A stretch of 64,000 nt of DNA. Origin: Candidatus Thorarchaeota archaeon (GTDB lineage Archaea > Asgardarchaeota > Thorarchaeia > Thorarchaeales > Thorarchaeaceae). The stretch lies in assembly GCA_003345545.1 (NCBI GenBank), contig PRDH01000039.1:89881-153880 (forward strand), written 5' to 3'. Below, piece after piece: positions 6,557 to 10,658 of the stretch. A program made the position numbers and the translations under genes. The stretch's first letter is position 1. Each line of letters starts with the position of its first letter. The notes beneath the pieces were generated by a model that searched no databases, had not been told where the DNA came from, and was given only the letters and a program-made list of their open reading frames with translations.

Positions 6557-7663
6557 CTAGAGTCTCTTCTTGCCCAAGAGGAATTCTTCAACCCAACGCT
6601 CTGCTCGATACATCGTTGTAGGCGTAGGCGGCATTTTGAAACCATATGCGGAGATGGACTCAAGTGAACCTCCTATACCTCTCTTCAAAGCCAGCTTTGT
6701 TCCCCTGATGGCATCCAGCAGGATAGGTCCAGCATTTGGCCCATCTGTCACTTCCATTCTGATATCTATCTTAATTGGAGCGCCACCGAATTGACGTCCG
6801 TTGATATAGAAGAATGAATCGCGGCTGTTATCCATGAAATCAACATAGTCTGATGACCCTGCAACGAGTGGAGCATCATAGGGCAAGTCTTGGCTTATTG
6901 CTGCGCTCTTGACGCCTCTCTTTCTCATTCTGCCTCTGTAGTGAGAGTCCAACGATTCCGCACCGCCACCAACATCAAGTTGATAGCTCTTGTCCACCTT
7001 CACACCTCTTGCAACCAGAAGCTGCAGAATACTGCGATGTAGGACTGTGGAGCCCAGTTGATCCTGAATATCGTCACCGATAAGCGGGAGTCCCTTCTTC
7101 TCGAACTTCTTATTCCACTCAAGATCTGAAGCTATTGATATTGGCGTCGCGTTGATGAAGGCGCACCCTGCGTCTAACGCTGCTTTTGCATAGTACTTTG
7201 TAGCATCTTCTGCTGAACCAGGCAAGAGATTGACAAGAATCTCTGCACCTGCGTCCTTGAGCACCTTGACAACATTCGCATCAGGTGCGTTGGAGAGACT
7301 CACAAGTGTCTGAAGCATTTCATCGACTCCATCCAATAATGGACCCTTGGCGACAATGACACCGGTCTTAGGAACTTTCGAAAAGCGCATCACATTGTTG
7401 GGTTTTGCAAAGATTGCCTCAGAGAGGTCAAAACCAATCTTTGTATCAGCAACGTCGAAAGCTGCGACAAACTCAATATCACTCACGTGGAATCCTGCGA
7501 AATCGGGATGAGCTAAACCAGGTACATCTCCCTCTGTCTTCACATTCTTGTAGTACTCTACTCCTTGGACTAGAGCACTTGCAACATTTCCAACTCCAAC
7601 AATTGCTACTTTGATTCCATCCAATTGTTCCACCTCTGGTTCTTTTCGGACCTCTCTTGTCAA
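6557..7663 (-). CDS. ino1: myo-inositol-1-phosphate synthase family protein (divergent)
   Basis: VAIVGVGNVASALVQG, FVAAFDV, GDD, SDYV and YGFKMPP motifs; some active-site positions deviate. Confidence 0.85.
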   Translation of the reverse strand: MTREVRKEPEVEQLDGIKVAIVGVGNVASALVQGVEYYKNVKTEGDVPGLAHPDFAGFHVSDIEFVAAFDVADTKIGFDLSEAIFAKPNNVMRFSKVPKTGVIVAKGPLLDGVDEMLQTLVSLSNAPDANVVKVLKDAGAEILVNLLPGSAEDATKYYAKAALDAGCAFINATPISIASDLEWNKKFEKKGLPLIGDDIQDQLGSTVLHRSILQLLVARGVKVDKSYQLDVGGGAESLDSHYRGRMRKRGVKSAAISQDLPYDAPLVAGSSDYVDFMDNSRDSFFYINGRQFGGAPIKIDIRMEVTDGPNAGPILLDAIRGTKLALKRGIGGSLESISAYGFKMPPTPTTMYRAERWVEEFLLGKKRL

Positions 7664-7753
7664 TGTCTTATATACTATTCTATTGATATAGAATAGTTAG
7701 ACAATCGTTGTTGGGGAGGAAGAGTTTATGTTGGTATCTTACGTATATTTCAC

Positions 7754-7989
7754 TGGACGATTGGCCGACACCATGTTGCTCCATGCGTCGTCGGTAGTCG
7801 TGGGAACGACGCAGATACACTTAGTGGTCTATGCGAATGTCCCGTCGCGGGAGATTCGCCTCTCACCGAAAAGGTTCAGGGAGATACCCGAATAGTGTGT
7901 TCAGCGAGCACCACTCATGATCAAAGAGAAAAGAGGGTGGACCTCGAGCCCCAAAAATGGGCACCAAAAAGGGCGTTGGCCTTCGTCCA
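7754..7989 (+). ncRNA. Candidate novel structured non-coding RNA (~236 nt)
   Basis: Ends pair (TGGACGA/TCGTCCA and GGCCGAC/GTTGGCC); at least six internal helices; G-U pairs favour the + strand; TTTATG about 24 nt upstream; no ORF. Confidence 0.6.
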
Positions 7990-8002
7990 CTCATTGTTCT
8001 GA

Positions 8003-9172
8003 CTAATTCTCCTCAAGTTGCTCTGACAGGAGCTCCATGATATCTAGGACTCTCACTCTACTGCTGATACTCTCTGCGCCTTCTTTCAGATTACGCACGC
8101 AGAATGGGCAAGCTGTTGCTAGAATATCCGCCCTGACCCCCTCTGCAGTCTTCACTCTGTCAGCAGCAATCCTTCTGGCAAGGGACACATCAAATGAACG
8201 CAGACCTCCTCCAGCCCCACAGCACATTGCTGCTTCCCTATTGGGGGTCATCTCAACAAGCTCTACACTGGGGATTGCCTTTATGATTTCTCTGGGCTCT
8301 TCGTAGACTCCTAGCGCTCTCCCCAGATGGCAGGGGTCATGCCATGTGACTCTCCTTTGCCTGTCACCACCCCTCAGTATCAGTTTTCCACCTTTGATAG
8401 CAGACTCGAGGAATTCAACCACGTGCACCACTTTCGGCATATCTAGACCAAAGTACTCTGAATAATCCTCGCGGAGTGTCTTTAGGCATCCCGCACATGC
8501 AACGATGACTGTTTTTGCACCGGACTCTTTGATACTCTGCATCACTCTCTCCGCATTCTCTCTTGCACTGTCAATGCGTCCTGTCCTTATCATGACACTT
8601 CCGCAACATGGCTCATCTTCCAGAACTGCAAAATCGTACCCAGCAGCTCTCAAGACTCGGGCTGCCGATTTTGCTGTTTCAGTCAATTTGAGACCTGCTG
8701 TACAGCCTGCAAAATACAGTACGTCACCTGTGCTCGGAATGTCAAATCCTATCTCAGCCACCCAATCTCTACGTGTCTTATTCGTCTCGGTGTACGGATT
8801 ATTGTATCTCAGAATCTTATCCGCTATCGCATCACGTGACTCGTTCGGTATCTCATTGAGCACATCCCGCACGCTTTCCAAACACTTCGCAGGATCGAAC
8901 TCAGCGGCGCAAATGGCAGTGCAATTGCCACAGAGTGTACATGTGTAGAGCGCTTCTGCATTCTCCGCGGTCTTCATAAGTCTTCCTTCGAGCAGAGCAA
9001 TGGCTACCTGAATTCTGCCCCGCATGAAGCTAGTTTCAAAACCAGAGGAGTTCTTCCAGACGGGACATACTCCATCAAAACCTCTGTCTTCATAGACTGC
9101 ATTTCGACACATGCCGCATCTGCGACATTGTGCCAAGTTCTCCATCAATTCATCAATGCGAGCACCAGTCAT
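8003..9172 (-). CDS. Fe-S oxidoreductase, GlcF/HdrD-like (2x 4Fe-4S + 2 CCG domains)
   Basis: CRRCGMC, CTLCGNC...C, PCCG, HDPCHLGR, MCCGAGGG and ACPFC. Confidence 0.9.
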   Translation of the reverse strand: MTGARIDELMENLAQCRRCGMCRNAVYEDRGFDGVCPVWKNSSGFETSFMRGRIQVAIALLEGRLMKTAENAEALYTCTLCGNCTAICAAEFDPAKCLESVRDVLNEIPNESRDAIADKILRYNNPYTETNKTRRDWVAEIGFDIPSTGDVLYFAGCTAGLKLTETAKSAARVLRAAGYDFAVLEDEPCCGSVMIRTGRIDSARENAERVMQSIKESGAKTVIVACAGCLKTLREDYSEYFGLDMPKVVHVVEFLESAIKGGKLILRGGDRQRRVTWHDPCHLGRALGVYEEPREIIKAIPSVELVEMTPNREAAMCCGAGGGLRSFDVSLARRIAADRVKTAEGVRADILATACPFCVRNLKEGAESISSRVRVLDIMELLSEQLEEN

Positions 9173-9230
9173 TGTCAGAGTCCCCCTAATGTCCGTGGCG
9201 GCCTGATTCCATCGGGATCACCAGACCTTT

Positions 9231-10658
9231 TCATTGCTCTTCACTTACATGTTCAATCCCTGGAATGACGCCAGGATTCATGATATTGTTGGGATCGACT
9301 GCTTCTTTTATGTCGCGAAGGAACTCCAAGTAGGTTTGCATCTCTGTTATCCCATCCACCCAATATGGTGCAAGTTTGAATGGAACCGCACCTGTCTTGA
9401 AGAGGCGTTTTGAGAGCTCCTTGTGAGCTGCACGTGCTTTGATTTCTTCATCTTTATCTTGCGGGTCATAGAATATCTGAGGATAGTAGTTGTATGATCC
9501 ATGCCCAGACTGAAATCCGGCAGTGTGACCAGCAATGCCGTACTCGTCAAAGAGAGGCCACATCTCTTCTATAGTACGATGCCACTGCGACTGAGGTTGG
9601 TGATGGTACAGGATTCGCCAGTGCCAACCGTGGACATAGGATGACCTTGCAAGCTCTCGCATGCGATCATTCCATTCCCCCCGCGGGAGTTCACGAATGC
9701 CAATGACCTGTCCCCCGACTCTTTCGCAGGCCTCTCTGGCAGCTATGACGTCGTTCTCCAACTGATTCTCTCTTACTCTTCCTATCACCATAGATATGGT
9801 GACGGGTGGCCATTCGTGCTTTGGGACTCCATACTCCTCTCCTACCATTTCCAGAAAGAAATCCAGAATTCTACCCTCATATATCGCAATCCAGACCGTG
9901 CTCAAGTCATCCTGTTTCACCTCAAACACGAATCTCTCAGCGTCTTGGGCGCTTTGAAAGCCATATGTGTTGTAATCGAAGTAGTGCATTCTCTTGAAGG
10001 TCTTCAGAGATACTTTCGTGATGATTCCAAAAGCTCCTAGTGAACCGATGAACAGTCCTGTCAGATCAGGGCCGAAGGCATAACGGAGGAATGGCCCTGG
10101 AGCATTGGGGTTGGCCTCAGAACCCGTTTGTATGATTTCGCCATTAGGCAGGACCACCTCAAGACCCAGAACAAGCTCAGCAATGCATCCGAATCTGCTT
10201 GAACCAAAACCTGCTCCGTTGACTGCCACATTTCCAGCAATTGTAGCACTCAAGGAGGAACCGGGATAGATAGGTAGCCATAGGTCATACTTATTGAGGA
10301 ACTTGTCTAGCCTTCCAAAGTTGATGCCAGCGCCAACTTTCACAGAACGCAAGTCTTCATAAATGTGGATATCGTCTAGCCTCAAAAGGTCAACAACGAG
10401 TCCCCCCTTCTTGGGAATGACCTCTCCCTGCAAGCTGGATCCTCCTGCGCGAGGGGTCACAGGTATCCTGTGCTTATTTGCGATCTTGATGACCTGCGAC
10501 ACTTGATGTGCATCTGCTGGTCTCACTACCGCTGCTGGCAGAACTGGTTCGTAGCTGGTAGAGGCCGATACTGAGTAAGTCAGTAGTACATCCTTCTTCG
10601 TGCTGACGAATTCCTCACCTACGATGGCGACAAGCTTCTGCACAACTTCTTTTTTCAA
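9231..10658 (-). CDS. FAD-binding oxidoreductase, GlcD/LDH-like
   Basis: PRAGGSSLQG, ATIAGNV, GSLGAFGIIT and DPNNIMNPG. Confidence 0.9.
   Translation of the reverse strand: MKKEVVQKLVAIVGEEFVSTKKDVLLTYSVSASTSYEPVLPAAVVRPADAHQVSQVIKIANKHRIPVTPRAGGSSLQGEVIPKKGGLVVDLLRLDDIHIYEDLRSVKVGAGINFGRLDKFLNKYDLWLPIYPGSSLSATIAGNVAVNGAGFGSSRFGCIAELVLGLEVVLPNGEIIQTGSEANPNAPGPFLRYAFGPDLTGLFIGSLGAFGIITKVSLKTFKRMHYFDYNTYGFQSAQDAERFVFEVKQDDLSTVWIAIYEGRILDFFLEMVGEEYGVPKHEWPPVTISMVIGRVRENQLENDVIAAREACERVGGQVIGIRELPRGEWNDRMRELARSSYVHGWHWRILYHHQPQSQWHRTIEEMWPLFDEYGIAGHTAGFQSGHGSYNYYPQIFYDPQDKDEEIKARAAHKELSKRLFKTGAVPFKLAPYWVDGITEMQTYLEFLRDIKEAVDPNNIMNPGVIPGIEHVSEEQ

Follow-up and report, generated by a model that had tools for sequence, protein, structure and literature searches.

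A predicted RNA gene of about 238 nt beside ino1 in Thorarchaeia, with no match among the catalogued structured RNA families

Described large RNAs and the locus beside ino1

To our knowledge, few structured RNAs exceed 200 nt and combine many covarying helices with invariant unpaired nucleotides, and almost all of the known orphan classes are bacterial. OLE, GOLLD, ROOL, raiA and HEARO are bacterial orphan large structured noncoding RNAs that were found by comparative genomics; where the function of such a large RNA has been solved, it proved to be that of a ribozyme, RNP enzyme, guide RNA or cage-forming RNA. In the window (the whole 64-kb stretch of Thorarchaeota DNA analysed here), a forward-strand segment between ino1 and a CCG-domain Fe-S protein gene is, with a confidence close to certainty, predicted to be a new, stand-alone gene for a structured noncoding RNA. 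It resembles the bacterial classes in that it is longer than 200 nt, has numerous helices and junctions, covaries strongly, contains invariant unpaired nucleotides and is a stand-alone gene found in one lineage, with a genomic context that is silent on function. In contrast to the bacterial RNAs, it is archaeal (Asgard), strictly single copy and fixed in its syntenic position, without mobile-element or phage association; it is smaller than OLE, GOLLD and ROOL, and a search with the Rfam models of these classes revealed no match in sequence or structure. A full-text literature search, with partial coverage of the literature, found no papers on such an RNA.

The search of the 64-kb window with the 4227 models of Rfam 15 gave no hits at the gathering level. 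At E-values up to 10, only noise was found over positions 7600–8100 (e.g., sR30 on the minus strand, E-value, 8.2), and the same applies to three divergent homologs from other genera, including a spurious sequence-only match to MEG8_3. The RNA thus matches none of the catalogued families and, as judged by these comparisons, is a new kind of RNA. The preliminary description of the segment had stated that the hallmarks of RNase P, SRP and tRNA are absent, which agrees with the outcome of the covariance model (CM) searches and ARAGORN. Archaeal RNase P RNA (RF00373) is likewise a multi-junction molecule with conserved single-stranded regions and a TTATG-type TATA box upstream. This identity was rejected, because the segment 7600–8100 contains neither a CM match nor the CR-I/CR-V (P4) motifs, and the true gene is located elsewhere in the genome (C12:49445–49784, 151.9 bits).

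Archaeal SRP (7S) RNA (RF01857) shares with the present RNA its size class, paired ends, an own promoter, one copy per genome and a GGUGG motif. Since RF01857 found nothing either in the RNA gene or in the rest of the 93%-complete assembly, a reading as divergent SRP RNA was briefly plausible. It was rejected, as the helix 8 and helix 6 signatures are missing and 23 of the 24 genus relatives carry their SRP RNA at a distinct locus; in one of them (G001), SRP RNA is found on contig C3 and the new RNA on C1. As a separate observation, the SRP RNAs of this genus score 80–112 bits, close to the Rfam gathering score (96.5) or lower, as compared with 118–193 bits in most other Asgard families, and may thus be divergent themselves.

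Y RNAs and the bacterial YrlA-type RNAs combine a tRNA-like module with a clamped stem and are bound by Ro. The present RNA has a comparable sequence-conserved stem formed by its 5' and 3' ends, a T-loop-like GGUUCA and a likely oligo-U 3' tail, but it is much larger, matches no Rfam Y RNA, and resides in a genome without a TROVE/Ro gene. The tRNA-like echoes pointed out earlier fared unequally: GGUUCA is conserved, although GGUUCAG has a G at the position corresponding to A58 of the T-loop, whereas the TAGTGGT segment likened to a D-loop is not conserved. An identity as tRNA or tmRNA was rejected, given that ARAGORN finds none in the window and that P2, not a T-arm, precedes the 3' strand of P1. 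The same decision was reached for a C/D-box or H/ACA guide, as AUGAUCA is restricted to the clade of the present genome (G000), being AUGUUCA or ACGUUCA elsewhere, and the 3' tail is ACC, not ACA. A guide RNA of a mobile element or defence system (omega RNA, retron msr/msd, tracrRNA) was rejected on the basis of the single copy, the lack of a transposase, RT or Cas neighbour, and the absence from viral contigs.

A small protein gene was also considered and rejected, because the stop-free frames are scattered over all six frames, differ between close relatives and include no consistent one. The ORF that starts at the ATG of the TATA box varies from 1 to 97 codons across the homologs. Stop codons as such are depleted in the RNA region: 37 of 69 sequences have a stop-free frame, as compared with 19% of mononucleotide shuffles, in which dinucleotides are not preserved; this is probably an effect of composition or structure.

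Fold, covariation and transcription signals

The gap between the start of ino1 and the stop of the CCG-domain Fe-S gene measures 339 bp and includes a stretch with raised G+C content; both of the flanking genes lie on the minus strand. The minimum free energy (MFE) of 7754–7989 on the plus strand is −94.1 kcal/mol, as compared with −73.3 kcal/mol (s.d. 4.6) for dinucleotide shuffles (z, −4.56), and none of the 200 shuffles folds as well. Since a good score is obtained for the minus strand, too (z, −4.1), the orientation is not readable from the folding energy of this copy alone. In 19 divergent homologs, the mean z is −4.7 on the plus and −3.2 on the minus strand, and the MFE is lower on the plus strand in 18 of them. 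The strand was assigned on the basis of the model pairs, among which G–U cells outnumber A–C cells 428 to 47 (about 9 to 1) in the plus orientation, in agreement with the preference for this strand that had been noticed in the single sequence.

BLASTN revealed one copy in 23 of the 27 genomes of the genus (69–96% identity). In the MAFFT alignment of these 23 sequences, RNAalifold predicted 61 pairs, 14 of which show compensatory changes. After revision with the long-range helix UGCUC/GAGCA, 97.9% of the cells in the genus model are paired, versus about 40% with slid partners. The class-wide alignment of 69 sequences, including 17 metagenome contigs, has 93.4% of the cells paired versus about 42% with slid partners, and double changes in 57 of 64 pairs; most of the class-wide pair counts depend on this alignment, which was fitted to the model. 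Two checks are less affected by such fitting. All of the 13 column pairs with the highest MI/APC values are pairs of the model, and in a MAFFT-only core alignment of 16 genera, P7 and P8 were recovered with compensatory changes. The structured RNA between ino1 and the Fe-S oxidoreductase gene, proposed from one sequence, is thereby borne out by the folding score, the covariation and the conserved homologs.

The helices drawn in the preliminary description (7755–60/7983–88, 7763–69/7975–81, 7777–81/7906–10, 7784–91/7806–13, 7814–21/7894–7901, 7833–44/7848–59, 7911–16/7935–40, 7948–51/7959–62 and the ACC-loop-GGT hairpin) are all present and agree with the consensus model. In its overall architecture, the P1–P3 clamp joins both ends of the molecule, and P4 encloses P5 together with a three-way junction that bears P7 and P8 (Table 1). 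Near-invariant segments of the class-wide consensus are GGACG/CGUCC, GAAUGUCC/GGAGAUUC, CUCAC and GUUCAGRG. In P1 and P7, the sequence is more conserved than pairing alone would need, and nucleotides of loops and bulges are invariant. Class-wide, four of the six P1 pairs show double changes (e.g., GGAUG/CAUCC, GGGCG/CGCCC and GGACA/UGUCC), as do five of six pairs in P4, which is mostly invariant within the genus. The top MI pair of the alignment falls in P5. On the unfitted MAFFT alignment, P7 (consensus GAAUgUcC...GGAgaUUC) is 96.6% paired with seven covarying pairs. The outer helix of P8 is 100% paired, all four of its outer pairs covary, and the GUUCAG of this hairpin is at least 97% conserved.

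The AYGUUCA and GGGUGGACCUC motifs of the 3' domain are invariant. Two mutually exclusive helices are found there on the unfitted alignment, namely P9 (CCACUC/GGGUGG, 75% paired) and a local hairpin (GAGG/CCUC, 84% paired), neither with convincing covariation, so that the helix around GGGUGGACCUC may be either one. Two further features of the preliminary description did not extend beyond the G000/G001 clade: the alternative pairing of AGTGGT with ACCACT, regarded as a possible pseudoknot or switch, is not conserved across genera, and the CCAAAAA..GGGC duplication is confined to the clade. A pairing of GGUGGAC with GUCCACC of the 3' tail was rejected for lack of conservation across genera. No pseudoknot stands out in the MI/APC analysis of the class alignment.

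Upstream, a TATA element had been proposed at TTTATG (7725–7730). It turned out to be the local copy of a YTTAW pentamer: in 68 of 69 loci, such a pentamer starts 28–30 nt 5' of the first position of the model. In the same genome, TTTTTATG occurs at a comparable distance upstream of the RNase P RNA gene. Directly 5' of the element, purine-rich runs occur in all 35 loci displayed, and positions −34 and −33 are A in 62–72% of the 69 loci. Downstream, the first 8 nt past the model end contain 4–6 T in all 68 loci with a flank (mean 5.2 T and 6.9 pyrimidines), which is likely an archaeal termination signal. The RNA gene thus appears to have its own BRE/TATA-type promoter and T-rich stop; such sequence signals are the basis for inferring the transcript as well as its ends and abundance. 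Together with the Rfam negatives, the covariation, the G–U excess and the location of the RNase P and SRP RNA genes elsewhere, the conserved promoter and 3' flank support the earlier proposal of an independently transcribed plus-strand noncoding RNA of an undescribed class, which would be antisense to both neighbours.

Table 1. Coordinates and properties of the predicted RNA gene, its helices and its putative transcription signals (positions in the window).
Feature	Coordinates	Strand	Description
Purine-rich, BRE-like run	7713–7724	+	GGGGAGGAAGAG; directly 5' of the TATA element; putative promoter part
TATA-like box	7724–7731	+	GTTTATGT; family consensus GCTTATGT
RNA gene (predicted)	7754–7991	+	About 238 nt, UGGACGA to UCGUCCACU; full-length CM match, 218 bits; single copy in genome
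P1 (terminal clamp)	7755–7760 / 7983–7988	+	GGACGA / UCGUCC; invariant in genus
P2/P3	7764–7772 / 7972–7980	+	5' strands GC..GACACC; 8/8 pairs with compensatory changes class-wide
P4 (long-range, closes domain I)	7777–7781 / 7906–7910	+	UGCUC / GAGCA; 92.9% paired class-wide
P5 hairpin	7784–7793 / 7801–7813	+	Sequence and length variable; 10/10 pairs covary class-wide
P6/P6a stems	7816–7821 / 7894–7899 and 7826–7828 / 7886–7888	+	Enclose P7–P8 three-way junction; 9/9 pairs with compensatory changes
P7 hairpin	7834–7858	+	CGAAUGUCC / GGAGAUUCG; conserved G–G mismatch; most conserved module; 99.1% paired
P8 hairpin	7861–7882	+	CUCUCACC-loop-GGU(UCA)GRGAG; conserved UCA bulge (GUUCAGRG motif)
3' domain	7911–7947	+	CCACUC, AYGUUCA...AAAA loop, then GAGGGUGGACCUCRAG
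P10 hairpin	7949–7961	+	CCC / GGG, A-rich loop; 96.8% paired; double changes in 3/3 pairs
Pyrimidine/T-rich 3' flank	7992–8001	+	CATTGTTCTG; weaker than in relatives

Distribution, loss and gene neighbourhood

Two covariance models were used to explore the distribution of the RNA. The first (R1) gave full-length single-copy matches in 66 of the 86 family genomes and, with filters off, also found the RNA in two genomes that had at first been scored negative. The second (R2), a 118-position core model from 16 genera, detected the RNA, with one copy per genome, in 69 of the 87 Thorarchaeia genomes; these come from 15 of 17 genera and include 22 of the 24 high-quality genomes. Outside the class, nothing credible was found by R2 in 125 genomes from 26 other Asgard families (best E-value, 0.04), and R1 was concordant. 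Among the metagenome contigs that match a three-anchor motif, 17 of 19 proved to be full-length homologs. No copy was found on viral contigs, and the ino1 neighbourhoods searched in the sister family and in four further Asgard families contained no homolog; in the single sister-family genome, which is without the RNA, a plus-strand ORF precedes ino1. A second, partial copy was observed in one genome (G020; C292:6–150, L017), on a 541-nt contig beside the full copy on C398; it probably reflects strain heterogeneity of the MAG rather than a true duplication.

In genus g10, which is without the RNA, ino1 and its promoter directly abut the 3' end of the CCG Fe-S gene (e.g., G079, L240:2560–2700). 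The RNA gene has thus been cleanly deleted in g10; it was lost at least once and is dispensable there. This natural clean loss offers a comparative handle on function. The Asgard class is well defined, in that about 70 sequences are available, the secondary structure is nearly complete, putative promoter and stop signals are mapped, and the genomic address is fixed. RNA biologists can thus approach it directly by structure probing, cryo-EM, screens for ribozyme activity and ligands, and pull-downs. The class is further evidence that Thorarchaeia have an unexplored set of stable RNAs.

The CCG Fe-S gene is convergent downstream of the RNA in 30 of 35 loci. The neighbours comprise ino1, the CCG Fe-S protein, an FAD oxidase, a CpXC protein and a VTT-domain protein, and no RNA-binding gene is consistently linked to the RNA across the 35 loci. 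In 12 loci, a gene for an Ssb-like OB-fold protein with an RGG tail, preceded by its own TTTATA box, is inserted between the RNA and the CCG gene. Such proteins (PF21473; e.g., L045:1928–2398), with an RGG/GAR-like C-terminal tail, form a family of 1–13 (mostly 3–10) paralogs per genome in all of the 86 family genomes. The family is thus not specifically linked to the RNA, and it was rejected as a partner because it is multi-copy and present also in g10. A riboswitch or 5' leader was rejected as well, as no plus-strand gene lies 3' of the RNA in the window or in 23 of the 35 loci, a T-rich stop follows the RNA, and the Ssb-like gene has the promoter element of its own.

Possible functions

By a slight balance of probability, the best overall explanation of the locus is a stand-alone gene for a folded RNA that acts in trans and is bound by protein. 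The closed and elaborate fold, the conservation of P1 and P7 beyond pairing, and the invariant loop and bulge nucleotides suggest an RNA of this kind. The product would be a stable, compactly folded molecule; its P7–P8 module, sequence-invariant P1 clamp and conserved loops would most likely be the recognition surfaces for one or more proteins, and the RNA would serve as scaffold or cofactor of an RNP rather than as an antisense regulator. This RNP mechanism is proposed tentatively, with somewhat less than even confidence. The TROVE (Ro) domain was not found in the genome, and a search for the La domain gave no match there, nor did it in the control genomes.

The main rival, which we consider unlikely, is a ribozyme or a ligand-binding, riboswitch-like RNA, in which the invariant nucleotides of the junctions and loops would make up an active site or binding pocket. 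Large ribozymes and complex aptamers typically have such a size, several junctions and many invariant unpaired nucleotides, the covariation is very strong for an RNA confined to one lineage, and the search for a partner gene (by linkage, and through Ro and the Ssb-like family) yielded none. On the other hand, the RNA resembles none of the ribozyme or riboswitch families of Rfam 15 and is not located in a 5' UTR, no conserved pseudoknot or feature resembling a cleavage site was detected, and the gene has been lost in one genus. It is rather more doubtful that the RNA represents the subunit responsible for catalysis or substrate recognition in an RNP enzyme specific to Thorarchaeia, or a free-standing ribozyme, with a core composed of the P7–P8 junction and the GGGUGGACCUC/AYGUUCA motifs. 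If true, the archaeal lineage closest to eukaryotes would possess a large functional RNA of a new class.

Compared with trans action by a protein-bound RNA, a role tied to the locus appears improbable. According to this explanation, either divergent transcription from the shared control region of about 60–170 bp or the RNA itself modulates the expression of inositol-1-phosphate synthase. It would account for the position of ino1, which is divergent upstream of the RNA in 32 of 35 loci from 15 genera, and the spacer does contain a conserved palindrome (ACTATTCTAT-N-ATAGAAT) adjoining the ino1 TATA box. However, the synteny may be plain inheritance within one class, the RNA is intact in the few loci where it is separated from ino1, and g10 retains ino1 and the operator without the RNA. 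The sole complementarity (GGACCUC to GAGGUCC of the ino1 leader) does not hold even in close relatives, and interference between promoters needs no elaborate fold of ten helices. The palindrome itself, written in full as ACTATTCTAT-N3-5-ATAGAAT(AGT), spans positions 7674–7697 (both strands) next to a TATA box that reads ACTTATAAG or ACTTTAAAA in relatives. It resembles an operator at which a transcription factor would act on ino1, and most genera retain it, including the one without the RNA.

Slightly more improbable again is a small RNA that pairs with targets in trans, or a protein sponge, acting through the GUUCA motifs or the ACCUC stretch, which resembles an anti-SD sequence. GUUCA does occur in unpaired contexts, in the P8 bulge and in the loop of the 3' domain, and GGACCUC resembles the 3' end of 16S rRNA (GGAUCACCUCC), but two copies are all that the RNA has of the motif, no conserved target was found, and conservation resides mostly in helices and junctions, not in an accessible seed. 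Mimicry of rRNA, or antisense pairing to 16S or 23S rRNA, was rejected, as the matches are at chance level (E-values, 0.2–0.8). Finally, a divergent copy of a known RNA (RNase P, SRP, tRNA/tmRNA-like, C/D or H/ACA guide, mobile-element guide) or a small protein gene is very improbable: the missing SRP RNA of the assembly, the paired ends followed by ACC, the T-loop-like GGUUCA and the excess of stop-free frames speak for it, against the absence of any Rfam match at E-values up to 10 in four homologs from four genera and the family-by-family results given above.

Two minor observations concern the flanking genes. The ORF of ino1, as delimited mechanically, starts at TTG 7663 (−). A TTG further into the ORF, at about 7627, has GAGGUGG before it and the conserved IKVAIVGVGN after it, and seems to be the true start, which would make the 5' UTR of ino1 a short one. 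On the other side, positions 8003–10658 (−) encode the CCG-domain Fe-S protein, which contains a 4Fe-4S dicluster domain, followed by an FAD_binding_4 oxidase; this pair, which is conserved 3' of the RNA in most loci, looks like GlcF/GlcD of the glycolate or lactate oxidase type.
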